The notes beneath the pieces were generated by a model that was not told where the DNA came from, did no database searches, and worked only from the letters and a program-made list of their open reading frames with translations. The position numbers were made by a program, and so were the translations under genes. From positions 69,750,001 to 69,814,000 of the forward strand of contig CM069138.1 in NCBI GenBank assembly GCA_035221665.1: DNA of 64,000 nucleotides, given 5' to 3'. The stretch is from Okamejei kenojei (taxonomy: Eukaryota). This document shows, one piece after another, positions 1 to 64,000 of this stretch (position 1 is its first letter; the number at the start of each line of letters is the position of its first letter).

Positions 1-636
1 ATCCGTGGCGAAGGCTCAGGACGTGCCGCTAGATCAAATCCTCGCGGCCGCAGGATAGTCTAGAAAGTCAACTTTTTCTCGTTTTTATGACAAACTTGTT
101 CCGACAATGCCACGGTTTGGGCGTGCTGTTTTGGGTTCCATTTAATTCTGTTGCTTTGTTTATATCGATTATTGTTTGTAATTTCCCCTTGGGACAGAGG
201 GGTTATTACTGTTTTTTGTTATCATTCTTAAAATAGTTATTGAATAATTCATGCAATGTTCAATATATTATTTATTTACTACTGTGTCAACCGAATCAGA
301 TTGTCGTATGGAGTGCATCTCACGTAAAATAGTAAGATTAAATGAGAACTTACCAGTTCGAAGTTTGATCCTTATTTTATGAGGAGTGACGTTGAGGGAT
401 TACGTGAAGAAGCCCCGCCAGGCGCATGCGTGTCATACTTCAAAGCAGCGGCGTGAAAACACAGAAAACAAATAGCCGAAGTAACATAGTAAGCCTGTAA
501 GAAGACTAGAACTACCAGATGATCTCTTAGATTATGAGGGTGGGAGCGGAGGGCACGTAATCCCTCAACGTCACTCCTCATAAAATAAGGATCAAACTTC
601 AAACTGGTAAGTTCTCATTTAATCTTACTATTTTAC
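1..636 (+). mobile_element. DIRS1-like retrotransposon, 3' end (copy 1): tyrosine recombinase C-terminus plus terminal inverted arms; continues upstream of the window
   Basis: 2-145 translates SVAKAQDVPLDQILAAAG*SRKSTFSRFYDKLVPTMPRFGRAVLGSI*, homologous to 53255-53393. Terminal arms match those at 7741-8048, 53600-53915 and 62322-62626. Confidence 0.9.
324..636. repeat. 83-bp inverted repeat (324-406 / 554-636) enclosing a 147-bp loop
   Basis: gtaaaatagtaagattaaatgagaac...gagggattacgtg versus cacgtaatccctc...cttactattttac; one mismatch seen by eye. Confidence 0.95.
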
Positions 637-879
637 TGCACAGTTTATGTTGCAGTGAAATAGTTTTGGCTTCACAGTAACTTGAAATGCACAGTCCTAT
701 TGAAGCCAAACTGGTTTGAGTTTGGATCTTGAACACGAGGGTGGCTATGCCAAGTCAATCTCACCTTGTTTTGACTTTGCTAGCTGCACCATTTAGCAAA
801 TATTCAGTTCAATGTTTTCTGAGGCAATGAGCTGGATTATTTTAATTATTTTAATAAACCATGTGAGAAATGTTAACAT

Positions 880-3949: not shown

Positions 3950-4760
3950 TTGGAAGTATGTCCGTGGAACATACTGGAATACATGTGTGAGGGTCAAGAA
4001 TTGTCTGTTATGGCATCAAGGTTTGCAATACCCTCGCAAACAAAGGAGCTGCTGCAAGCAGAGTTGGCTACCAGCATCAGCTACGTTACAGCACTACAGG
4101 AACAGGTGATGGCTGCAAAATACCATACACCTGTAAATTGTGCATTCCTGAAAGTGCCGGCAGCGAACAGCGCTATCTGGGGAGACATTGGAGGGGGTGC
4201 AAAAACTCAGGAAGTGAAACTGCAACAAATTTGAAAAATTACTGGCCTCGGGCATCTAGGCATTTGCCAGATCTGTGGATGGCGGGCCCTTTTCGGACGT
4301 CCAACAGGATGCCCTGGCGTTGATGTGCAATGCACACTTCGAAATGAACTGCTTTCAGCAGAATGCCATCAGAACTGCCTTAAATACCCAATTTGCAGGC
4401 TTATGCAAGGCCAGCAATGTCCAGCCGCCGAATCTACTCTTCGGGAAAGACCTACCCAAACAGGTAAAAGACCTGGATGAGGAAGCAAAAGCTGTCGGAT
4501 TAATCAAGGTACCAACGACGAGCAAAGCTTCACCGTTTCGGCGACAACACCCCAACGCCTCCATTGGCAGTAAGCGGTTCACTGAAGCTGGTGGCAGCTC
4601 GAAAGCTGATTCTCTGGGCAGAGGTCTTTTAGGCCAAGGCCCAAGCCAGCCCTCAGGGAAAATGCGCAATCCACGCACCCCAGCAGTCCTACCCTCCAAA
4701 ATTTGTGAGGACGGAAATAGAACCCACATCAGGGGCCTTTGGGCTTACCATAAGACCACC
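3950..4760 (+). pseudogene. DIRS gag-like ORF1 remnant
   Basis: ORFs 3950-4234 and 4275-4835 (TPVNCAFLKVPAANSAIW; DALALMCNAHFEMN; LLFGKDLPKQVKDL) lie immediately upstream of RT. Confidence 0.65.
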
Positions 4761-5084
4761 GGTAACCATGGAGGTAGGTGGGTCTGGTTCTTTCCGAAAC
4801 ATGGGGTGTGTGGACTAGTTACAAGTTGGTGGTAGATTACACTTGGTTTTTGCATGAATGGCAATGGATAACATCAGATCCGTTCATAAAATAAAAGGAT
4901 AACATCAGATCAGTTTATACTGCACAATATGCAACAGTTCCAAGTTGAATTTTCCAAACAGAAAGGTCTATATATACAAGCAGATATCCAAACACGTAAA
5001 AGATCTGGATGAGGAAGCAAAAGCTGCTGGGTTAATTAAAGCACCCACGACGAGCAAAGCTTCACCGTTCCAGCGACGACACCC

Positions 5085-6600
5085 TGCGCCTCCAAAAAAG
5101 AAAGATGGAGGACGTCGGATCATCCTTGATTTAACGCAACTAACTCTTATGTGCAGTATAGACATTTCAAAATGGAAAACCTCGTTACTGCCAAACAACT
5201 GATTTCCAAAAGATGCTTTATGGCATGCATCGATCTCAACGATGCATACTATTCGGTGCCCATTCACAGGGATCACCAGAGATATTTGAAATTCAGCTGG
5301 ATGGGGCAACTGTGGCAGTTTAAAGCATTGCCTAATGGGTCAACCTCAGCCCAGGTTATTTACCAAATTATTAAAGCCGGTGCTTGGGCGACTTAGAGCT
5401 CAAAAACACATTGTTATGACATATGTGGATGATTTTCTCATCATAGGAAAATGCTGAAACTGGCTAAATTGGCCACAAAACTCATATTTGACAAGTTGGG
5501 GTTTCTCATCCATTCAGTTAAATCCAAGTTGATACCAACTAGAGTTATTAATTATTTGGGGTTTACCATTAACTCTATTAATATGTCTGTGCCTCTGCCC
5601 TGGGGCAAGAGATTAGAATCAATAGAAGCCTGTAACAACCTTGTTGTTATTAAACAGCTAACTATTCGACAGGTGACTAATGTAATTGGCAAATTAGTGG
5701 CTGTTTTTCCAGCTGCACAATTTGGTCCTTTGCATTATCAGAATTTACAACGTGCAAAGGAGCAAGCACTCAAATACCATTTAGGTCATTTTAACAGACC
5801 TATGCTATTACCAGCTGAAGCTGTATCAGAATTACAATGGTGGACGACCAATATTCGGCATTTCTCCAGTAATATTTGGTCAGTTACTCCAGTTATATTA
5901 CAAACTGATGCTAGTGCTCAAGGATGAGAGCTACTTATACCATCCCTAGTGGCGGTGGCAGATGGTTTGTGCATAAGTTATCAAATTCTTCAGTGACATG
6001 GCATCAACTACCTGGAGATGCTGGGGGCATTTTTATGGGATACAATCTTATTGTGGGAATATGCATACTTTGCATGATTTAACTACAGATTGACAACACT
6101 ACAGCGATGGCATATATTAATCACATGGGTGGAATCAAGTCAGTATCCTGAGATAATTTAGCTAGCCTTATTTGGCACTGGTGTATGGTGAAAAGCATTT
6201 GGATTTCAGCTACCTACTTGCCGGGTAGGTTTAACATGGTGGCGGACACCAGGCCACGCAAACCCAATGACGACACAGAATTGATGTTGGATCATAAAGT
6301 ATTTACCGACATTGTTGCTCGGTATGGAACACCGGAGGGGCAGTGATGATGGATGCATTCTCGCTACACTGGGGAGGAATGTGCTTTTTATGCCACCAAT
6401 TTGCCTCATCAGTCGGGTCTTGCAAAAAATTCCGCTTCAGACATTTTGATAGTGCCTGACTGGCCTACGTAGCCATGGTTCCTGCTGATGTTGTGAATGA
6501 TAATAGAACCTTATATGGTTATTTCTAAAACACAGAAATTTGCTGGTTCATCCCGTGACTCGGGAAGCCCACCCTATGCATATAGAATCAATTTATTGAT
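5085..6600 (+). pseudogene. DIRS reverse transcriptase / RNase H / Dam-like methyltransferase remnant (frameshifted)
   Basis: RT: KKDGGRRIILDL, IDLNDAYYSVPI, QFKALPNG, YVDD at ~5422. RNase H: LQTDAS, INYLEM, IDNTTAMAYINHMGG. MT-like: DAFSLHW and IVPDWPT*PWF. Confidence 0.9.
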
Positions 6601-7560: not shown

Positions 7561-8324
7561 ACTCTGATCGCTATTATTATTATCATTTGCATCAGCATTT
7601 TAAAATCTATGTCATGTCTGAATGCATTATCTTTTCAATCATTTCTGGTCAACTAATGCAGTGTGTGGCATGGACTCGTGTTCACGGCATGAAATCACAG
7701 AGCTTTGAAATCTTCACGTTGTCACTCACGTGACTCCGAAGTAAAATAGGAAGATTAAACGAGAACGTACCAGTTTGAAGTTTGATCTTTATTTTATGAG
7801 GTGTTACGATCAGGGATTACGTGCCCTCCGCTCCCAACCCTTCTCATAAAGTCAACTGGTAGTTCTAGTTTTCTCGAATCTTCCTATAATCAGTTCAACA
7901 ACTGTGTTTCTGTGATTTCACACCGCTGTTTTGAAGGTTGACGCGCATGTGGGCTGGTGGGCTTCTTTACGTAATCCCTCATCGTAACTTCTCGTAAAAT
8001 AAAGATCAAACTTCAAACTGGTAAGTTCTCATTTAATCTTCCTATTTTGTAGTACAAGGGTGTACATATGATGGAAATTTTACAAATAAGATTAAACAGG
8101 CTGATTGAGATCACAAATCATGTATATACAGGAAGCCTGTCCATATGTTTGCATATTTTGCATAGGAATGCTGCACTAAATCAGGGAGTCTCAGTCAAAA
8201 TGGGTGTTATAGCTCTGGCATCAATTAAGGTGAGGCAGTAATGATTCTCAAGGAAACAGACCTAACGGAGAGGGAAAGTGTTGTGCAAAGGGAAGTAGGA
8301 TCTCATAATGGCCCATTGTTTTGT

Positions 8325-8928
8325 TTAGGTTTGTTTAGAGATACAGCACGGAGACAATAGACAATAGGTGCAGGAGTAGGCCCTTCGGCCCTTCGAGCCA
8401 GCACCGCCATTCAATGTGATCTTGGCTGATCATCCCCAATCAGTACCCTGTTCCTGCCTTCTCCCCATATCCCCTGACTCCGCTATTTTTAAGAGCCCTA
8501 TCTAGCTCTCTCTTGAAAGCATCCAGAGAACCTGCCTCCACCGCCCTCTGAGGCAGAGAATTCCACAGACTCGCCACTCTCTGTGAGAAAAAGTGTTTCT
8601 TTCGTCTCTGTTCTAAATGGCGTACTCCTTATTCTTAAACTGTGGCCCCTGGTTCTGGACTCCCCCAACATCGGGAACCCTTCATGAAGGGAGGCCCTTC
8701 AATCCACTGAGTCCGAGTCGACCAGTGATGACCCTGTACACTGGCACTATCCTACACACTAGGGACTATTTTCCATTATTACAAAACCCAATTAACACCC
8801 AGAGAAAACCCACGTGGTCACGGGGAGGACATGCAATCTCCGTACAGACAGCACCCATAGTCAGGATCGAACCTGGGTATCTGGCGCTATAAGGCAGCAG
8901 ATCTATCACTGTGCTACCGTGCCACCCC
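8325..8928 (-). mobile_element. HE1/V-SINE split by a CR1 3' fragment (8353-8680, minus strand)
   Basis: SINE tail tttagagatacagcacgg at 8335 resumes as aggcccttc at ~8692; tRNA-like head (caggatcgaacctggg; gtgccacccc) ends at 8928. The insert carries a CR1 3' end (aataggtgcaggagtagg). Confidence 0.85.
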
Positions 8929-23602: not shown

Positions 23603-26383
23603 TTGTGTCTCAATGCGAGGAGCATTCGTAATAAGGTGGACGAGTTGAATGTGCAGATAGCTATTAATGACTATGCTATAGTTGGGATCACGGAGACATG
23701 GCTCCAGGGTGACCAAGGCTGGGATCTGAACATCCAGGGATATATAATATTCAGGAGGGATAGACGGAAATTAAAAGGAGGTGGGGTAGCGTTGCTGGTG
23801 AGAGAGGAGAATAATGCAATAGAAAGAAGGGACATTAGCATGGAGGACGTAGAATCGATATGGGTAGAGCTGCGAAACTCTAAGTGGCAGAAAACGCTAG
23901 TGGGAGTTGTGTACAGGCCACCTAACAGTAGTATTGGAGTTGGGGATGGCATCAAACAGGAAATTAGAAGTGCGTGCAACAAGGGTAACACAGTTATAAT
24001 GGGTGACTTCAATCTGCACATAGATTGGGTGAATCAAATTGGCAGGGGTGCTGAGGAAGAGGATTTCTTGGAATGTATGCGGGATAGTTTTCTAAACCAA
24101 CATGTGGAGGAACCAACGAGAGAGCAGGCTATTCTAGACTGGGTATTGAGTAATGAGGAAGGGTTAGTTAGCAGTCTTGTTATGCGTGGCCCCTTGGGCA
24201 AGAGTGACCATAATATGATTGAGTTCTTCATTAGGATGGAGAGTGACATAATTAAGTCAGAAACAAGGGTTCTGAACTTAAACAAAGGTAACTTGTTTGG
24301 CCAAGATAGACTGGCAGGTGAGTCTTAAAGGGTTGACAGTGGATGTGCAATGGAAGGTATTTAAAGACTGCATGGATGAAGTACAAAAATTGTTCATACC
24401 AGTTTGGCAAAAGAATAAATCAGGGAAGGTAGTGCATCCGTGGATAACGAGGGAAATCAGGGATAGTATAAAAACTAAAGATGAGGCATACAAATTGGCC
24501 AAAAAAAGCAGCCTACCAGAGGACTGGGAGAAATTCAGAATCCAGCAGAGGAGGACAAAGGGCTTAATTAGGAAAGGGAAAATAGATTACAAAAGGAAAC
24601 TGGCAGGGAACATAAAAACTGACCGCAAAAGTTTTTATAGATATGTGAAGAGAAAGAGACTAGTTAGAACAAATGTTGGTCCCTTGCAGTCAGAAGCAGG
24701 TGAATTGATCATGGGGAACATGGACATGGCAGACCAATTGAATAACTACTTTGGTTCTGTCTTCACTAAGGAAGACATAAATAATCTGCCGGAAATAGCA
24801 GTGGGCCGGAGGTCAAATAAGATGGCGGAACTGAGTGAAATCCAGGTTAGCCAGGAAGTGGTGTTGGGTAAATTGAACGCATTAAAGGCCGATAAATCCC
24901 CAGGGCCAGATGGTCTGCATCCCAGAGTGCCCAAGGAGGTAGCCACGGAAATAGTGGATGCATTAGTGATAATTTTTCAAAACTCCTTAGATTCTGGAGT
25001 AGTTCCTGAGGATTGGAGGATAGCTAATGTAACCCCACTTTTTAAGAAAGGAGGGAGAGGGAAAGCGGGGAATTACAGACCAGTTAGTCTAACATCGGTA
25101 GTGGGGAAACTGCTAAAATCAGTTATTAAAGATGGGATAGCAGCGCATTTGGAAAGTGGTGAAATCATTGGACAAAGTCAGCATAGATTTACGAAAGGTA
25201 AATCATGTCTGACGAATCTTATAGAATTTTTCGAGGATGTAACTAGTAGAGTGGATAAGGGAGAACCAGTGGATGTGTTATATCTGGACTTTCAGAAGGC
25301 TTTCGACAAGGTCCCACATAAGAGATTAGTATATAAACTTAAAGCACATGGTATTGGTGGTTCAATATTGATGTGGATAGAGAACTGGCTGGCAGACAGG
25401 AAGCAAAGGGTAGGAGTAAACGGGTCCTTTTCAGAATGGCAGGCAGTGAGTAGTGGGGTACCGCAAGGCTCAGTGCTGGGACCCCAGCTATTTACAATAT
25501 ACATTAATGATTTGGATGAGGGAATTGAATGCAATATCTCCAAATTTGCAGATGACACCAAGCTGGGGGGTATAGTTAGGTGTGAGGAGGATGCTAGGAG
25601 GCTGCAGGGTGATTTGGATAGGCTGAGTGAATGGTCTGATGCATGGCAGATGCAGTATAATGTGGATAAATGTGAGGTTATCCACTTTGGTGGCAAAAAC
25701 ATGAGGGTGGACTATTATCTGAATGGTGGCAGAATAGGAAAAGGGGAGATGCAACGAGACCTGGGTGTCATGGTACACCAGTCATTGAAAGTAGGCATGC
25801 AGGTGCAGCAGGCAGTGAAGAAAGCAAATGGTATGTTAGCATTCATAGCAAAAGGATTTGAGTATAGGAGCAGGGAGGTTTTATTACAGTTGTACAGGGT
25901 TTTGGTGAGACCACACCTGGAGTATTGCGTACAGTTTTGTATCCAAATCTGAGGAAAGACATTCTTGCCATAGAGGGGGTTCAGAGAAGGTTCACCAGAC
26001 TGATTCCTGGGATGTCGGGACTTTCATATGAAGAAAAACTGGATAGACTCGGCTTGTACTCACTGGAATTTAGAAGATTGAGGGGGGTTCTTATAGAAAC
26101 TTACAAAATTCTTAAGGGGTTGGACAAGCTAGATGCAGGAAGATTGTTCCCAATGTTGGGGGAGTCCAGAACAAGGGGTCACAGTCTAAGGATAAGAGGG
26201 AATTCCTTTTGGACCGAGGTGAGGAAAACATTCTTTACGCAGAGAGTGGTGAGTCTCTGGAATTCTCTGCCACAGAAGATCGTTGAGGCCAGTTCATTGG
26301 CTATATTCAAGAGGGAGTTGGATGTGGCTCTTGTGGCTAAAGGGATCAGGGGGTATGGAGAGAAGGCAGGTACGGGATACTGA
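23603..26383 (+). pseudogene. CR1 ORF2: APE endonuclease plus reverse transcriptase (frameshifts near 24295 and 25940)
   Basis: APE: NARSI, GITETWL, YRPP, GDFN, SDH. RT: NYRPVSLTS, LDFQKAFDKVPH, GVPQGSVLGP, FADD. Confidence 0.95.
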
Positions 26384-27844
26384 GTTGGATGATCAGCCAT
26401 GATCATATTGAATGGCGGTGCAGGCTCGAAGGGCCGAATGGCCTACTCCTGCACCTATTTTTCTATGTTTCTATGTTTCTATCCCTTTAGCCACAAGGGC
26501 CACATCTAACTCCGTCTTAAATATAGCCAATGAATTGGCTTCAAGTACCTTCTGTGGCAGAGAATTCCACAGATTCACCACTCTCTGTGTGAAAAATGTT
26601 TTTCTCATCTCGGTCCTAAAAGACTTCCCCCTTATCCTTAAACTGTGACCCCTTGTTCTGGACTTCCCCAACATCGGGAACAATCTTCCTGCACCTAGCC
26701 TAACCCCTTAAGAATTTTGTAAGTTTTTATAAGAACCCCCCTCAATCTTCTAAATTCTAGCGAGTACAAGCTGAGTCTATCCAGTCTTTCTTCATATGAA
26801 AGTCCTGCCATCCCAGGAATCAGTCTGGTGAACCTTCTCTGTATTCCCTCTGTGGCAAGAATGTATTTCCTCAGATTAAGAGACCAAAACTGTACACAAT
26901 ACTCCAGGTGTGGTCTCACCAAGGCCCTGTACAACTACAGTAGAACCTCCCTGCTCCTATACTCAAATCCTTTTGCTATGAATGCTAACATATCATTCGC
27001 TTTCTTCACTGCCTGCTGCACCTGCATGCCTACTTTCAATGACTGGTGTACCATGACACCCAGGTCTCGATGCATCTCCCCTTTTCCTAATCGGCCACCA
27101 TTCAGATAATAGTCTACTTTCCTGTTCATGCCACCAAAGTGCATAACCTCACATTTATCCACATTATACTGCATCTGCCATGCATTTGCCCACTCACCCA
27201 ACCTATCCAAGTCACCTTGCAGCCTCCTAGCATCCTCCTCACAGCTAACGCTGTCCCCCAGCTTCGCTTCATCCGCAAACTTGGAGATGTTGCATTCAAT
27301 TCCCTCGTCCAAATCATTAATATATATTGTAAATATCTGGGGTCCCAGCACTGAGCCTTGCGGTTCCCCACTGCCTGCCATTCTGAAAATGACCCGTTTA
27401 CTCCTACTCTTTGCTTCCTGTCTGCCAGCCAGTTCTCTATCCATATCAATACTGAACCCCCAATACTGAACCCCCAATACCCTCAAACGTTTGTACCTGC
27501 GCTTTTAGATCCCTCTGATTTACAACACTCTCTAGGACAGTAGATAGAATGGTAAAGATGGTACACAGTATAAAATGGGCTGTTTCTGTGCTATATGTCG
27601 TATTCCACGAATGAAGACAGACTAGGAGCGATTGCAGAGCAAATGGATTTGATCCAAGTACATCGTTAAAAAACTCATTGGTAAGTAAGAAGAGATCAGC
27701 AAAATTTATGTCCTGTGAGACTTTTATTTGAAAGGAGTGGAAGCTTGGAATATAAACAAGAGGCAGTAAGGATTTAATTGTAAAGAGACTTGGTCAGACA
27801 ATATCTCAAACACAACATTCGTTTTGGGTATTGAACTATAGCTT

Positions 27845-48829: not shown

Positions 48830-49275
48830 TCCCTGCTATACAGGGCCCTAGTGAAACAACACCTGGAGTATTGTGTGCAGTTTTGGTCCCCTAATTTGAG
48901 GAAGGACATTCTTGCTAATGAGGGAGTGCAGCGTAGGTTCACAAGGTTAATTCCCGGGAGATATGCTGAGAGAATGGAGCGGCTGGGCTTGTCTACTATG
49001 GAATTTAGAAGGATGTGAGGGGATCTTATTGAAAAATTATTAAGGGTTTGGACATGCTAGAGGCAGGAAACATGTTCACAATGTTGGGGGAGTCCAGAAC
49101 CAGGGGCCACAGTTTAAGAATAAGGGGTAAGACATTTAGAACGAAAATGAGGAAACACTTTTTCACGCAGAGAGTTGTGAGTCTGTGGAATTCTCTGCCT
49201 CAAAGGGCAATGGAGGCCGGTTCTCTGGATACTTTCAAGAAAAAGCTTGATAGGGCTCTTAAAGATAGTGGAGTC
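48830..49275 (+). mobile_element. CR1 ORF2 C-terminal fragment
   Basis: LYRALVKQHLEYCVQFWSPNLRKDI...TRGHSLRIRG...FFTQRVVSLWNSLP. Confidence 0.9.
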
Positions 49276-49408: not shown

Positions 49409-52400
49409 ATTTTACTTCGGAGTCACGTGAGTGACTACGTGAAGAAGCCCCGCCAGTGTGCATGCTCGTCATTACGTCAGATGCATCGGGCTGGCAGGGC
49501 AATGCTCCTGCCGGTGGTAAGTTTCAACCTAGAAGGTAAGTGTTTTTTATTTACCAGCATTGTTTGTTCAAGCAGGAGCCTCTCTTCACAGAGGTTTTCT
49601 GCCGGATTTATCCGAAGTCCGATGCGTAAGCCGGCTATGGGCTGTGGGGGAACCCCGGACCGACCACTGAAGCGGACAGCCGGCAAAGATCGGGTTTCGA
49701 GATAACAGCCGCTCACAAAGCAGTCAGTGGCTTCCAGCCTGCTGGGATGCCGTTTAAAGAATGCCAGAGTCGCTGACAGTGCGGTCAGCGACTCACAGGC
49801 ACGTTGGTCCCCAGGCATGGAGTAAAATTGGAGTGAGAGAGAACTCGTGCAGCCCTATTGGGACTCGGGTGAGTCGGGCTGCAAGGGTTCCTCTCCGATA
49901 ATAAGGGTATTTTTCACCCTTTAGAAGTCCACACTGCCAAATTAGTGAGACTACACTATAAGAGCGCGGGCCTATGGGACAGGCCGCGCCAGCAGCACTT
50001 GGAACAGGGCTGTTTCATGTGAAAAAGCGCCGGCCTCTACGAGAGGTGGCGCCAGCAATGCCTGGGACAGGGTTGCTCAAGGTCTCCCTGCTGGAGTGGG
50101 AGACCAGGACGGGTCAGTGTACTACTGACGCCAAATCTGTCACAGCGCTGGACTACGGGAGAGCCGTGCCAGCAGTGCCTGGGATAAGGCTGCTTCATGT
50201 GTGAAAGCGCCGGCCTACGGGAGAGCTGCGCCAGCAGCGCCTAGTACAGGGCTGCTCAAGGTCTCCCTGTTGCAAAGGGCAGACCAGTTTGGGTCAATGG
50301 GTTGCTGACACCAAACTTTTCACAGAGCAGGCCTACGGGAGAGCCGCGCCAGCAGCACCCGTTGACAGGGCTGTGTGTATGACCTCCCATAAGCAGGAAC
50401 CGGGAGAGCCAGGGCAGTATAAATCTGACCCTGAAGTGGTGAGCTCCCGTGAGCATCAGCCGGGAGAACCAGGACATGGGGACCCAGCACAGCAGCATCT
50501 CGTTTGGGCTGCGTGTGTGATCTCCCGTGAGAATGACTTGGAAGAGCCAGGGAAGTAGGAATCTGACCCTGAAGTTTGGGCCACAGCACACCAGCACCTC
50601 GTTTAGGGCTGTGTGCGACCTCCCGTGAGCATCAGCCGGGAGAGCCAGGGCAGGGTGAAGCTGACCCTGAAGTTTGGTGTCATTGCTTATGTGCATACAC
50701 CAGAGCACATGAGCCATGCTCTAGGTATGCCGGATGGGGTCAGAAATTTACAATACCGGCGGGAACTGATGCAGCCAGGGATAACAATCTGACCAGCAAA
50801 TTAATGGCCTCTCACCAGTTCCAGGACTTCATAATGGAAGAAACTTCACATATCAAACACGTAACTGTGCATCGCTCTAAAGGAGCGCTTCATGAGGGCG
50901 CATGAATTAAGGCTGCAGAAGTCTTAAAAAACTGGTTGGAGCAGGAACTATGGCGTTTGGGCAAATGGCAAGGCCACTATCTAAACACAGCAGGATATGG
51001 ACCCTGCTGTGTAATGCCCATTTGTTAGTTTATTATTTACGAATAACTATACAGCCTACACTCAACCCACAGTTCACAGCCTTGCGCAGATCCTCTAGTA
51101 CTCAGGGGAAGACCTGGACGATGAGACAAAAACTGAGACCAGGATGCCACCTCAAAAACCGTACCCTTTAGGAAGAGGTAAGTGAATATTGGACTGTATC
51201 CGGGGATCTTGAATAGGTATCTCGGAAGTACATCCTCCCGTACAAAATACACGTAGTTGGGTATTGGGGTTCAATACCACTAACTCTACAGATGAATGAT
51301 GCATATCAGCCTTAACAATTGTGTCCAATCCCCCAGCCAAAAGAACGATGGTGGGTGTCGAGTCATTCTGGGCCGAAACATACTTAACCCTTAAGGTCCA
51401 GTATAAAAGGTTTTAAATAAATATTTCAGTATAGTAACTGGGATAAAAAGGGTGTTATATGGCAGCCATAGATCTGAAAGATAATATTCAGCTACCACAC
51501 ACCTGTTGAGAGGTTAGGTCCTCACCCATCTAATTAAACTCAGATTAGTACCATTTAGAATGATTGGCTATTTGAGGTCATCATTGGTTAATTAACATGG
51601 CAGTACTTTGCCTACGGCCAAAAGTGTAACTAATGTCTCACGATGTACTAGCGACATTCTGACTCAATAACCTTTAGTTTACAAACTGATGTGAGCTTCA
51701 GGATGAGGAGCCACTGATATCAAGTCTGGCTGTGGCGGAGATAGAATGTGAAAGAACATTCTATCTCCGCATGAGGCATGAAGTAAACTGCATAGAATTG
51801 CTGAGTGCATTCTATGGCCTAAAGAATTCTGCTCAACAATGCATAATTTGCATGTGCAGCTTCAGATTGATAATACCACAGCTGTTGCATATCAATCACA
51901 TGGGTGGAATGAGGTCATTATTCTGTGGCAATCTGCCTAGCCTCATCTGGCACTGGTGCATTACAAGGAACATCTGGGTCTCAGATATCTACCTATCAGG
52001 TAGAGATAATGCAAAAGTTGCAGACACCAGGTCATGTAAATTCCATGACAAACAAAAAATGGATGATGAATCCAAAAGTTTCAAAATGATTGTTATGGAT
52101 TGCCAGACATAGATCTGTTGCATCTGGGTTAAATTACCAGTACCTATATTTGGCATGGGAACCAAATCTAGGGGCAGTAGCGGAGGATACATTCTCGCTA
52201 CATTGGGGATGTACATTCTTACGCTTTCCCCATTTCTGCCTCATTTAATCAATGTCTCACCAAAATAGAGTACAACTACACTTAGGCGTTTGGTAGTTCC
52301 TAAACTGGTCCACACAGCATGGTCCCATTGGTTCTGAGAGGGATGACACAGCATTCATGATTATCCCAATTACAGCAACTTGTTGGTTCACACTGGGACA

Positions 52401-53915
52401 GGAGGAAAGTTCCCCTTTACATGAGCGTATTAATCTATTGATTTGGATCTTCTGACCAGACTGTTCCAGGGACTCGGACTATCGAGTAGGACCGTCTATG
52501 TGATTACGGTGGCCTGGAGAGATAGTACTAAAAAAAGATATGTATCTCATATTAAGAAATGGGAGATGTCCTGTTTACAGTCAAATATATCATAAGTTGC
52601 AGGCATACCGGATGTATTGGAGTTCCTGGCTACATTGCATTTGATGAGCAGTTAAGCTATAGTGCCATTTATAGTGCTCAAAGTACTTTGTCCTCCTACT
52701 TAGTACAAGGGTCCGGAAAACACTCTGTCGGATCTCATCTATTGGTGGCCCGATTCATAGGAGGTATTTTAACAAAACCCTCCCAGAGAAAAATCTGGGA
52801 TGTGTGCATAGTTCTCACACTGCTTTGGCAATGGGGTCCAATTACATCTCTGTCTTTCCGGAAGTTAATGCTCAAAGTGGTCATGTTCATGGTGCTAATG
52901 GCAGCACTATGGGTCCAAATAGTGCAAAAGTTATGACTGGACAGCATGCATTCTTCTGTAGATTATATTGTGTTTTAATCAAATGATCTAATCAGAGCAG
53001 GCCAGGGATGGCTGGAACCAAAATAAGCTTAAAATATACCCATTGATCTGAGACTATACGTAATTATGCATCTGAGCTAATAATATCAAGGTCCTCAAGA
53101 GTTTCAGAGGCTCTGAAACAATGATGGTCATCAGCCATATAAAACCTCATACGAAGGTGTCAGTACAAGCTATTGCTAGATGGCCGAAACAGGTTTGCAT
53201 TGTGCTGGAGTAGACACTGATGTGTTTAATCACTCCACCAGGGCGGCATCAACATACGCAGCAAAGGCACAGGACGTGCCATTGGACCAAATCCTCACCA
53301 CAGGATAGTCCAGTTAAGGAACCTTTTAGTGTTTATGACAAACCTGTCCTCGCAATGCAAAGATTTGAGCATGCTGTTTTGGGTTCTGTTTGAGTTCTCC
53401 TTTGTAATTTCCCCTGCGAAAGAGGGGTTATTACAGTTCTTTTATTGTTTAAGACATTCATTGTATAATTTATACAATGTTTGATACATTATTTGGTTAT
53501 CCTGTGTCAACCAAGGCAGTGTGTCGCATGGAACTGTATCTACGGCATGAAATCACAGAGCTTTGAAATCTTCAACGTAGTCACTCACGTGACTCCGAAG
53601 TAAAATAGTAAGATTAAATGAGAACTTACCAGTTTGAAGTTTGATCTTTATTTTATGAGGAGTTACGATGAGGGCCCTACGCTCCCGACCCTCATAATCA
53701 CAAAGATCATCTGGTAGTTTTTGTCTTCTGAGTCTTACTATATCACTTCGACTGTAGTTACTGTGATTTCAAGCCGCTGCTTTGAAGATTGACGAGCATG
53801 CGCACTGGCGGGGCTTCTTCATGTAATCCCTCATCGTAACTCCTCATAAAATAAAGATCAAACTTCAAACTGGTAAGTTTAATGGTAAACTGGTAAACTC
53901 ATTTAATCTTACTAT
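49409..53915 (+). mobile_element. DIRS1-like retrotransposon (copy 3) with both termini and ICR; coding regions heavily decayed
   Basis: Left end 49409-49444 is complementary to ICR 53570-53606. 49437-49471 is complementary to 53790-53824. ICR 53607-53674 is complementary to the right end. Remnants of RNase H (HINHMGG), MT (DIDL..AS, DTFSLHW) and YR (HSTRAAST). Confidence 0.95.
49965..50680 (+). repeat. Higher-order tandem repeat arrays within the DIRS gag region
   Basis: gcctacgggagagccgcgccagcag-like units at ~49970, 50033, 50150, 50212, 50330 (~180-bp super-unit); second array of ctcccgtgagcatcagccgggagagccaggg / ctgaccctgaagt units to 50675. Confidence 0.85.
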
Positions 53916-54349
53916 CTCTTCTTATTTTACACACATGGAAAACGTTATGTTTTTATCAACAACGCCTGAGACATCATCACTAGTATGCAGTAAATGTTTT
54001 CAAACTCCACAGGCATGGAACAGCAGAGTTGTCATTTGGTTCTGCTCCCAATCCCCTTCAGTTCCCTGAATTATTTTTTTGCAATTTGATTCTAATCACC
54101 TATTGAAATTTATCAACTGGTCGGTTCCACTCATCAATCATGCTAAAAGTCAGGCTGCACTTTAATCAGGACTGGGACAAAAGCTACTTTTATAATCCTT
54201 TGACGTTAACAAAACGGGCACACCTTATTACTGATTCTCTTATAATGTACTTCCCTCCTCATGAGCTTCTAATAGGCTGTTTTCCCTGTAAGCAAAATCA
54301 GATTTGAACGAGTGTTTTGTTATGAACAATCAGTATAGCAGTCTACCAA

Positions 54350-55910
54350 GACCTTTTAGAGGTTTATAAAATCATCAGGACCTTAGATAAGGTGAATAAC
54401 CACAGTCTTTTGTATAAGGTGAATATTAAAGATGAGTGAGTGAGGTTATAGGTATAAGGTGAGTGTTAAAGATTTAACAGGGACCTGAGCAGCAACCTGT
54501 AAGAAACATAGAAAAATAGGTGCAGGAGTAGGCCATTTGGCCCTTCGAGCCAGCACCGCATTTAATATGACCATGGCTGATCATCTAGAATCAGTACCCC
54601 ATTCCTGCTTTTTCTCCATATCCCTTAATTCCTTTAGCCGAAGAGCTAAATCTAACTCTCTCTTGAAAATGGAGAAAATGGTTTGTTTAGAGTGTGGTGG
54701 GTGAATGGAACAAGATGGCAGAGGAAGTGGCTTGTGATCTCCCAGCAGAGTGTGATTTCCAGAAGAGAATGTTGCCGACTGGCCCACCCCAGACCGCAGT
54801 AGTACATGCTGAGGAATGCACTGAAGCTTGGTGCAGCCAGTGGCAAGGCTCTGCCTGGGAGAACCTCAGTCTAGGGTCCTTCCACTGGTGGAACAAAGTG
54901 TGGTGGAGACACTTCACAAACAAAGGAAGGGATGTCACCCCAGGGGGCCACATGAGTGGCCAGGGTGCCGGGTATAATGATGGGTTTTGAGAACACTACA
55001 AGATATAATGCTAAGGAATGTATATACAGCTATGGAGAATGACAGAGGAATTTTGCACAGTTCTTGTCTTATACATATTTTTTTCCTGAATAGTTTACTT
55101 TGATTTAAAAAAAGAGGAAGTGGTAGAGGCACGTACAAAAAATAACATTTAAAAGACACTTGGACATCTGCATCGATAGGAAAATTTTGGAGGAAGATGG
55201 GCCAAATACAGGCAAATGAGCTAACTCAGTTATCAACTTGGTCATAAGCTATAGGAGTAGAATTAGGCCATTTGACCCATCAAGTCTACTCCGCCATTCA
55301 ATCATGGCTGATCTATTTCTCCCTCCTAACCCCATTCTCCTGCCTTATCCCCATAACCTCTATCACCTGTACTAATCAAAAATCTATCTATCTCTGCCTT
55401 AGATATATCCACTGACTCGGCACCTACAGCCTTCTGTGGCAAAGAATTCCACAGATTCACCACCCTCTGACTAAATAAATTTCTCCTCATCTCCCTAAAA
55501 GAACGTCCTTTAATGCTGAGGCCATGACTTCTAGTTCTAGACTCTCCCAGTCTTCTCCAAGTCCACTCTATCCAAGCCTTTCACTATTCGGTAAGTTTTA
55601 ATGAGCCCCCCCCCCTAATTATTCTAAACTCCAGCGAGTGCAGGCTCAGTGCCAACAAATGCTCATCATAGGTTAACCCACTCATTCCTGGGATCATTCT
55701 TGTAACCCTCCTCTGGACCTTCTCCAGTACCAGCTCATCCTTCCTCAGATATGGTGCCCAAAATTGCTCATAATATTCCAAATGCGGACTTACCAGCCTC
55801 AACACCACATCCCTGTTTTTATATACAAGCCCTCTCGAAATAAATGCTAGCATTGGCATGGTGAGTAGGGCCAGGAGGGCCTGTCTGTATGTGGCATAGC
55901 TCTATGACTC
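54350..55910. mobile_element. Cluster of CR1 fragments: a plus-strand host interrupted by antisense CR1 3' ends (54500-54670; 55245-55855) and a Tx1 piece
   Basis: Minus ORF 55584-55859 MLAFISRGLVYKNRDV...PHLEYYEQFWAPYLRKD; plus-strand CR1 UTR pieces at 54690-54730 and 55113-55245. Confidence 0.75.
54731..55112 (+). mobile_element. Tx1/L1-clade 3' fragment with 11-bp TSD
   Basis: TSD agaggaagtgg at 54720-54730 and 55113-55123; ECCRLAHPRPQ*YMLRNALKLGAAS.KA...TSV* resembles shark Tx1 ORF2 ends; short A tail. Confidence 0.7.
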
Positions 55911-61100: not shown

Positions 61101-62321
61101 ACTTATTTCACAGCCAAAAGCTTGCCAAATGTCTGGTGGCATTTGACAGTGGCTCCGTGAGCAGACTCCATCTGTTGGATATATGTGCAATGACATTTCA
61201 CTTTCAAAATGCACCCCATTACAGTTCAAACAGGTTGTTTTTGGCGTAAAACAAATCAGAAATAGAACTTATGGAGGATTCGTGTCCATGATATTCATGT
61301 TTGCATAGAATTTGGCACAAGAAATTACAACAGATATTCCCTTCCTGAAGTAATTATATCTTATGCATTGGTGCACTCTACATATTATTCAGATAGGACT
61401 AAAGCCTTTGTTTTTTCTTTCTCTAAAGAGAATCACAAATCATCAATAATCTTGACAGCTTCCTGTAATGTTTTAGCAATGGCCAATTCTAGATGAAATA
61501 TATATTCAATGTCAAGAAAATATTATTCAGTGAATTCAACCTCAGAACTTTGCTCAGAGTTCACGAGATTCTTCATTTCCGGTCTAGTTAACAACATTGT
61601 AACTACCATCCCCATTTCAACTCCAGCCATAACAAATAAAATTAAGGTTATTTTAATGAAGAATAGATGTGACTCATGTGTAATACAATACAGCAGAATA
61701 CAGTTAAGAGCAGCTAATTGCAGTTTACTTTATTGTCAACATTAACGTTTGCATTCAATTGAACTTATAAATCATTACATCACTTGCATCTGATAGGGGT
61801 TATAAACTTTGTGGCATGACATACACTTTGTTTTTGCAAACTAGTTGATTTTTCCAAACCACTCCCAAAGGAATTATGAAGTCGGCCAAAGGGTATTATT
61901 GTGTATGTTTGGGATTTGTTAAATACTGTTCAAAATTTGTAAACGTATGGTGAACCCAGTTTACACCAATGTAATAGGGCAGAAGTTGTTTCAAATCCAG
62001 GGTGCAGTGTGACCAAGATACAAAGTGATCATAAACAATTTTAATATCATTCATTAATGTACTTTGTCTGGCTTGGCATTGCAGTTGAATCTTGTTCAAT
62101 GAAACTCCCAGTAGAAATGAATCAGTTCCTCCAGTATTTTGTGTCTCTCCACAGCGTAAACCAGCATCTGCAGTTCCTTCCTACACAATGCCATGTATCA
62201 CTTTGTTCCATTAATATGAATTCTAATCCTATTGCTTTAACATGCAGTAGTGCTCATTAATGTGCTTCTGGTAGGAAATAAAAGATCCATAGTGAAAACT
62301 ATCATAAAGGTCTGAGCCTAT

Positions 62322-64000
62322 AAAATAGAAAGATTAAATGAGAACTTACCGTTTGAAGTTTGATCTTTATTTGTGAGAAGTTGAAGTGAAGGATTACTGA
62401 AGAAGCCCGCCAGCCCGCATGGGTGTCAACCTTTAAAGCAGCTGTATGAAACCACAGAATAGTTGCTGACCTAAGCTATAGGAAGATTTAACGGACTAGA
62501 ACTACCGAATGATCTTTATGAGAATAGGGTTGGGAGTGGAGGGCACGTAATCCCTCACTTCAACTTCTCATAAAATAAAGATCAAACTTCAAATGGTAAG
62601 TTCTCGTTTAATCTTTCTATTTTATTTTGAAGTCACGTGAGTGACTACGTGAAGATTTTAAAGCTCTGTGATTTCATGCAGTGAACCAAAGTCCGTGCAA
62701 ATGTGCTGCCTCTGTTGACCAGATATGGCTAAAAACTGCATCAAAACATGATATTGACTTAAACATGTTTATGCTTTTAATAGAAATAATAACAGCCCCT
62801 TACATCAGGGATAAAGAATAGATTCATTAATAGAACTTAAAATTTTACTAGCAAACAAACCAGGCCTGGCAATAGGCTTATTATAATATGCTTGAAAAGT
62901 TCACTCATTCGACCATCCTGCTGTCGCTAGGATGCGGTCCAGCGGAGCTTCCATGAATCTTGCTGCCGACGTTGCTGCAGCCTTGGTAGAGTGAGATTTG
63001 TCCACTCCTGCGAATGCTAAAACATGTCTCAACCATCTAGAAATGGTCTACACCAATACCCTTCCGTGTGCTTTTCTGTGACTGATGAACATAGCCAATT
63101 CGGTGCCTCGAGTGTCGTTTGTAACCTTTATATATTGTTTGACAACACATAACCTACGATCAGGTGGATATACCAAAAAATCCAGCTTAAGTCCTAGCAC
63201 ACCTGGTCTACTTTGCTTAACTAACTCATTTACGTAAAAGATTACCCTATTGTTAGACATATCTGCCTTATTCAGCCTTAATTTATGCAATGACTGGACA
63301 CGTTGCGCTAAAACGAGCGCCATGACCATTATTAATTTATAGGTAAGCTGAACCAAAGATAAAGATGTGGCTGGAGCCCAACTGCGAAGCAGTGTTAACA
63401 TTACATTAATATCCCATACTTCCATATATCTGGGCCTGCGAGGGTTTTTGTTAAAGATACCCCTCATAAATTTGGATACCAATGTGTGAGACCCGACAGA
63501 ATGGTGTCCTGATCCCAGCAGCAAGTATGACGATTAAGCACTTCTAGCAGTGTTGATAGCACTGTAACTTAATTTTTTATATAAAATATAATGTTGAAAG
63601 GAATTCCAACACATCGGCTATATCTGCTGAACCATAAGTTATATCTGAATTAACACAAAAATCTTCCCATAGTCTAATGTAATAAGTGTACTGCTTCTTA
63701 GTGCCGTCCCGCCAAGCTGCAGTGATTACGTCCACCGTTCGGTCGGATAATCGAAGCCCCAAAAAAGGTCTTCTCAGACTGCAAATTAATAGATTGATTT
63801 TGTCATGCAGAGGATGAGACTCCCGAGACACGCAAGTATATATGTTTATGAATAACCATATATGGTTCTGTTAGCATTGCTAACAGCTAAGGGAACCATG
63901 GTTGCGTAGGCCATTCAGGCACTACTATAATACCCGAAGCGGAGTCTTGCTTGATTTTTTCCAAGCAACGACCGATGAGGCAAAATGGAGGGAAGGCATA
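62322..64000 (-). mobile_element. DIRS1-like retrotransposon (copy 4), 3' half: MT end, YR remnant, ICR and right terminus; continues beyond the window
   Basis: Reverse strand YAFPPFCLIGRCLEKIKQDSASGIIVVPEWPTQPWF; ORFs 63577-63831 and 63048-63524; HSTKAAATSA..AGWSNE*TFQAYYNKPI; terminal arms 62322-62400 / 62544-62625. Confidence 0.93.

Follow-up and report, generated by a model that had tools for sequence, protein, structure and literature searches.

Copy 1, the DIRS1-like element that runs into the window (the 64,000 nucleotides of Okamejei kenojei analyzed here, positions 69,750,001 to 69,814,000 of contig CM069138.1 in assembly GCA_035221665.1), carries the loop of its 3' hairpin reversed with respect to its body. 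Genome-wide scoring of loop orientation, which the preliminary description of this DNA had proposed, found about 90 such flips, and these are independent in-place inversions, not a propagating isomer. On balance, we favor the view that copy 1 is one of these roughly 90 independent inversions, each made by a polymerase that switched template across arms of 79-83 bp, probably during or soon after the element's own transposition.

Copy 1 is complete and about 4.77 kb long (L031:3862-8632); its start lies 4.1 kb upstream of the window. The preliminary description had placed its body on the forward strand and its loop, in reverse, between 83-bp arms, and both statements hold. The body strand is +, with the end of the tyrosine recombinase (YR) frame at window position 58. 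Three more copies of the cassette lie in the window (7741-8048, 53599-53879 and 62321-62624; copies 2-4), and against them the body and arms of copy 1 align on the forward strand while the loop does not; the reverse-complemented cassette aligns collinearly. The arms (324-406 and 554-636, 83 nt each) are 99% complementary around a spacer of 147 nt, and the arm-loop-arm strand folds with z = -18.9 against 100 shuffles. The features of the window are as follows.

1..58, + strand: 3' end of the YR frame of copy 1 (stop-to-stop frame L031:7147-8058; PF00589 above cut-off)
59..320, + strand: 3' non-coding body of copy 1, from alignment with copy 3 and genomic sisters
321..323, + strand: 3-base remnant in place of the 57 bases that in sisters contain the left ICR (complementary to the left terminus)
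324..406, + strand: inner arm, with the last left-ICR bases, the AAT circle junction (328-330) and the right ICR; its innermost ~25 bases are the divergent ITR (terms as in the cited part of PMC3266345)
401..430, + strand: 30 bases made direct and identical to the left terminus (L031:3889-3918) by the flip
407..553, - strand: 147-bp loop, reversed relative to the body, with 97-98% identity to standard loops of the same subfamily
554..632, + strand: right terminus (outer arm), last bases ATT; 633-636 are flank
7741..8048, + strand: copy 2 hairpin, standard orientation
53599..53879, + strand: copy 3 hairpin, standard orientation; left end at ~49409
62321..62624, - strand: copy 4 hairpin, standard orientation

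The left end of copy 1 is ordinary, and its termini read ATT at both ends with AAT at the ICR junction, the anatomy that the cited part of PMC3266345 gives for DIRS1-like elements. The arm earlier drawn to 636 stands as an 83-nt match, but the element itself stops at the ATT of 630-632; 633-636 are target bases that lengthen the match. The reported loss of half the ICR is borne out as well: only 3 bases separate CATCT (320) from GTAAAATAG (324), versus 57 in standard sisters. Copy 1 may have lost its left ICR in the inversion event itself, as a scar, or through a later deletion. Because the ICR is essential in DIRS-1, according to the cited part of PMC7192593, copy 1 with half its ICR gone is likely inert. 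Short-read contigs from two organism labels (4 of 4 runs) contain the junction between its right terminus and flank, and the insertion is thus perhaps older than the split of the two; across this junction (window 612-807), runs of the second label show 3 differences. None of the listed short-read pieces at copy 1 crosses an arm, and the loop orientation there is that of the assembly only. A further DIRS left end lies on the - strand 3.7 kb upstream of the left end of copy 1 (L031:62-174).

Copy 1 is a DIRS1-like element. Its frames follow one another as gag-like (without a Pfam match), RT (PF00078, E 1e-19), a frame without a clear match, and YR, the last with PF00589 at 28.3 bits against a cut-off of 27.1 and with the HSTR motif in frame. 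The frame that follows RT (L031:6539-7177) has only a sub-threshold match to PF12237, in a search with general profiles of which none is dedicated to RNase H or methyltransferase. Across the family, left ends carry ATT in at least 23 of 25 cases, and the ICR is complementary to both termini, of which copy 1 keeps the right half only. The left and right ITRs are inverted in standard copies, and their conserved part is direct in copy 1 and the other flips, as rearranged members. DIRS1-like elements, as presented in the cited parts of PMC3266345 and PMC7192593, likewise have gag-like, RT and YR frames, ATT ends, an AAT ICR junction, divergent and conserved ITR parts, a right extension and an ICR matching both ends, and insert into their own copies. 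Those same parts describe a single orientation from ICR to right terminus, whereas here 3-4% are reversed and copy 1 is also without its left ICR. The family counts at least 10,838 left ends in the genome, and its targets favor A before the ATT and, past it, no G, then T and A, with C-A at +7/+8.

A few observations on relatives and neighbors may be recorded here. The loop context that the preliminary description quoted for copies 2-4 is indeed in the standard orientation, but copy 3 is without its first 8 bases; the terminal arm of copy 3 is rearranged, a short duplication interrupting it ahead of its last bases (53880-53920). Copies 2 and 3 have internal direct repeats in their 5' parts (window 4453-5094 and 49963-50677). 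A large inverted repeat with ~1-kb arms of 90% identity and 134 bases between them (25351-27466) is a dispersed repeat with other copies at 8363-8678, 48839-49260 and 55251-55795. Elsewhere in the genome, a very young subfamily of ~950 ends, ~1% from nearest neighbors and ~4.5 kb long (L202-L231, L252-L261), has its YR match broken into pieces at similar places and is possibly non-autonomous. Three copy pairs with an identical right flank (L071/L072, L013/L024 and L015/L016) represent duplicated segments, or one nested insertion seen from both ends.

Flips are a small but regular fraction of the family. Among the 30 best genomic matches, the YR-side body lies no more than 1.5 kb away in 27, and three are flipped, including copy 1. 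Exact patterns run genome-wide returned 3,426 standard ends versus 50 and 64 flipped-pattern matches, with 0 matches for reversed-pattern controls. On inspection, the 114 flipped-pattern matches resolved into 87 clean cases of precise spacer reversal between inverted repeats, 3 flips whose arm is cut or that took up an insertion afterwards, 19 matches whose arm is extended and 5 irregular ones. As to sensitivity, 21 of 30 standard copies would match the flipped patterns if flipped; the corrected rate is ~90 in 2,490, or ~3.6% (3-4%). The matched pattern pair gave 38 flipped versus 946 standard copies in the youngest subfamily, and a second subfamily had 10 versus 151, with the rate estimated at 4.5% in the youngest subfamily versus 3.1% in the rest. 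Between sister clades of equal arm length the rate ranges from ~1% to ~14%, and flips are commoner among copies with near-identical arms. Other ICR types, which were sampled only, yielded no flip in a 30-locus sample, of which 29 loci had a loop match, and 1 in 6 elsewhere (L197). Two initial junction patterns (37 and 5,826 matches) caught mostly ICRs of other subfamilies, so they were discarded as junction counts. Reversed loops are thus to be expected in DIRS consensus building and annotation.

Each flip was made within its own element. All 62 clean flips tested hold the loop of their own subfamily, the criterion being a loop no more than 4 points away from the best match that the loops of the nearest body neighbors offer (L060 and L114 were dropped from the 64 non-extended rows); a foreign loop occurs in 6 of 14 extended-arm cases. 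Of the 20 flips fetched whole, 19 are ordinary at both ends and have their ICR intact, and the bases 3' of the right ATT follow the same pattern in flips (58) as in standard copies (66). On two subfamily trees, both star-like and of little power, the flip label changes 14 times versus 13.3-13.5 when shuffled (16 flips, taken from 39 in the youngest subfamily, and 30 standard copies) and 10 times versus 10 (11 flips, 30 standard). A flipped master lineage is disfavored by this absence of clustering. Own loops, normal termini and scatter on the trees therefore identify the flips as independent in-place inversions, with no sign that flipped copies multiply; each of them is likely a dead end. The preliminary description's proposal of an inversion between the arms is thereby upheld, but its notion of an interconverting or propagating flip-flop isomer does not agree with a frequency of ~3-4% and flips unclustered on the trees. 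Among the fetched loci, no flipped locus shares its flank with a standard one, and apparent haplotype duplicates in opposite orientation proved to be flank repeats or one locus fetched twice.

The hairpin also carries marks of the process that reversed it. In L321 and L339, which have different flanks, the reversed loop finishes with 5 bases from the end of the standard loop, joined via GGG. This scar is present in 2 of 39 flips and in none of 946 standard sisters (p = 0.0015, Fisher's test); its mirror form in unflipped copies would match the flipped pattern, and it is absent among the 64 matches of that pattern. A cut at ATT cannot leave such a scar. In short-read contigs the L321 scar was not confirmed, none of the listed pieces spanning it. 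The extended-arm matches consist of tail-to-tail pairs (12 of 19) and single elements (7 of 19), so that tail-to-tail pairing is ruled out as an account of them all. The seven single elements (L038, L054, L057, L094, L118, L325 and L342) show a near-perfect fold-back extension of the arm, 134-233 bp long, that reaches the left ICR and the body. The fold-back copies of L038 and L118 rejoin the old terminus through microhomology, and two of the seven are also flipped (p of about 0.02 at a base rate of 3.6%). In L060, 13 loop bases are overwritten from the opposite end. Microhomology junctions or perfected repeats at the hairpin are thus seen, in the assembly only, in L321, L339, L060, L038, L118 and L342. 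Since the L321 and L339 scars and the fold-backs occur at the same hairpin, template switching fits best.

We envision that a nascent strand, having copied one arm, would pair across to the opposite strand at the other arm, would then copy the loop backwards, and would return through arm homology or, rarely, through 3-base microhomology. The polymerase could be the element's RT or that of host replication or repair, with age patterns as the guide both to this choice and to the exact moment. Three points weigh against template switching: most flips are seamless, a product that YR or homologous recombination would leave equally well, with the scar in 2 only; the arms show no conversion tract in the form of shared mutations; and the ICR is a real YR target.

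The age of the flips points to an origin at or near transposition, because flips are enriched in younger copies, occur at lineage-specific rates and do not build up with age. By body distance, flipped copies are younger than standard ones in two comparisons (medians 0.8% vs 1.0%, p = 0.048; 1.7% vs 3.0%, p = 0.026), and in one subfamily flips number 1 of 19 in the older clade versus 10 of 22 in the younger part (p = 0.005, the split having been chosen after the tree was seen). The arm divergence of flips fits their age (observed/expected 0.90 vs 1.11, p = 0.31). The age test excluded arms of <70 or >90 aligned bases, neighbor distances >8%, and the A2 flips L046 and L092. Switching also takes place late, on the chromosome, since the fold-backs of L038, L094 and L118 copied mutations that postdate insertion, which weakens the case for early timing. 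Homogenization of the arms was rejected as a timing mark: mutations common to both arms are in no excess (1 in 16 and 1 in 10 flipped copies versus 1 in 28 and 4 in 26), and there is no conversion tract.

Inversion by the element's own recombinase has to be weighed most seriously against template switching, and we regard it as unlikely. In this scheme, the terminal junction of the circle would attack the element's own ICR 313 bp off and invert the loop, and the circle would later integrate normally via the junction beside the left ITR. The ICR is a real YR target in trans. Thirty of 118 junction-pattern matches were examined and comprise 11 head-to-tail joins, 11 insertions nested at an ICR, 2 truncated cases and 6 false ones, which are ICRs; in the nested ones an element sits in inverted orientation precisely at the ICR core of another, the far end being confirmed in 11 of 11. 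Scaled to the genome, insertion into an ICR reaches ~0.4% of the 10,838 left ends (~43) versus at most 0.12% predicted from the target motif, a preference of at least 3-fold, and head-to-tail joins are about as common (~0.4%). The circle junction and the ICR have more than 110 identical bases in common. Self-inversion by YR would also leave a seamless product, and the enrichment of flips in young copies suits it. If, however, the two sites were equal after inversion, opening at the element's own ICR should have left about as many elements as there are flips, and none of the 24 true junctions is of this kind; a direct search, estimated to catch about a quarter of such ends, gave 8 matches of which one ends at the core and is a fragment, where ~25 were expected if they were as numerous as flips. 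Free flip-flop between equal sites is disfavored because ICR-opened products are essentially absent. Self-inversion by YR with a privileged donor site is possible, at the price of an extra rule by which only the site beside the left ITR acts as donor, and it cannot produce the L321 and L339 scars. Of the routes named in the preliminary description (YR, homologous recombination, or strand transfer during hairpin replication), strand transfer thus fits best, whereas free inversion by YR fails on the missing ICR-opened products.

Several loci illustrate these junctions further. Nested backwards copies that split an ICR core, forming tail-to-tail pairs, are found at L232-L241, L244 (192-5436), L248 and L249; ICR-opened elements are near-absent genome-wide (loci L302/L310); and in the tail-to-tail pairs L245 (L046), L330 and L250 (L124) the shared loop is flipped with respect to its own element.

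Homologous recombination of the two arms, taking place on the chromosome at whatever time after insertion and without connection to transposition, would account for seamless junctions, own loops and normal ends, and late chromosomal events do happen at the hairpin. We nonetheless consider it improbable, as it predicts an equal or greater share of flips in older copies, where the same or fewer are seen, and leaves the scarred flips unexplained.

That the flips are assembly or sequencing artefacts of hairpins is very improbable. Such errors would suit the surplus of flips where arms are near-identical, and the short-read contigs span no arm; but arm mismatches number 2-5 in many flips, scaling with age, the clade-specific rates of ~1% to ~14% arise despite the same arm length, both scarred copies are flipped, and the position of the window within a 97-Mb contig suggests long reads. 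We give least credence of all to a sister inserted backwards into the ICR and then deleted between the direct right termini, so that its own loop stays behind in reverse: nested inverted insertions do exist, L048 and L099 each contain a reversed loop of foreign origin and, for copy 1 alone, a donor of the same subfamily would be compatible, but nested pairs are often cross-subfamily (6 of 14 extended cases) and yet the loop is the element's own in 62 of 62 clean flips, and nested insertions (~43) are rarer than flips, so that this general route is largely refuted. In L048 and L099 (L315, L316) the reversed foreign-subfamily loop sits in the ICR ahead of what remains of the resident loop; these are likely aborted or partly deleted nested insertions.

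More tentatively than the template-switch origin itself, we suggest that flips are frozen by-products of DIRS copying and that, together with the missing ICR-opened elements, they speak for an integration substrate other than a symmetric double-stranded circle. As part of that suggestion, the junction alone would donate, and the ICR would serve only as a target or strand-transfer point. Our picture of DIRS cDNA completion and integration is still largely a 1985 model. In an experimental DIRS study, as far as the cited part of PMC7192593 goes, the cDNA was mostly linear and single-stranded and the circle junction could not be amplified. A family of more than 10,000 copies makes such by-products countable: flips at 3-4%, ICR insertions at ~0.4%, head-to-tail joins at ~0.4%, and ICR-opened elements at almost none. 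Models of DIRS integration must reproduce these ratios, which can be scored with a tagged element, and flips thereby provide a new way of testing DIRS integration. If flips are instead host errors, they amount to a large natural assay, set in the germ line of a vertebrate, for inversion across 80-bp inverted repeats.

The kind of element and the likely mechanism are already known; the recurrent flipped isomer and the donor/target asymmetry appear undescribed. In a search of openly accessible articles, which took in neither supplements nor repeat-database entries nor the older subscription literature, no earlier account of a reversed DIRS loop came up. Segments between inverted repeats that occur in two orientations are familiar from the yeast 2-micron plasmid, inverted by the tyrosine recombinase Flp, and from the flip/flop of AAV, which uses hairpin copying; there, near-equal isomers are part of the life cycle. 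In contrast to that near parity, standard and flipped copies here stand at ~27 to 1, flipped forms are not propagated, and use of the two sites is unequal. The preliminary description had likened the flipped end to the layout of Ngaro/PAT elements. In split direct repeats, which the cited part of PMC9210276 gives as A1...B1-A2-B2, B1 and B2 are direct and identical. A short piece of the left terminus does recur in direct orientation near the 3' end after the flip, as in PAT/Ngaro (PMC9210276, in the part cited), but only 30 identical and 25 diverged bases become direct, the ICR, arms and internal junction copy stay inverted, and flipping the loop does not create that layout. The likeness to split direct repeats is superficial and no step toward them. 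A close parallel is with microinversions at inverted repeats, attributed in the cited parts of PMC8755829 and PMC7954356 to template switching or break repair: there, too, the spacer is reversed precisely, and the sites involved also show fold-back duplications and repeats made perfect. Those of apes, as given in the cited parts of these two sources, measure 17-33 nt, whereas here the spacer is ~147 bp and the arms ~80 bp; and, unlike the microinversions treated there, a single substrate in more than 10,000 copies here yields a rate, and there is a possible link to a transposition cycle.
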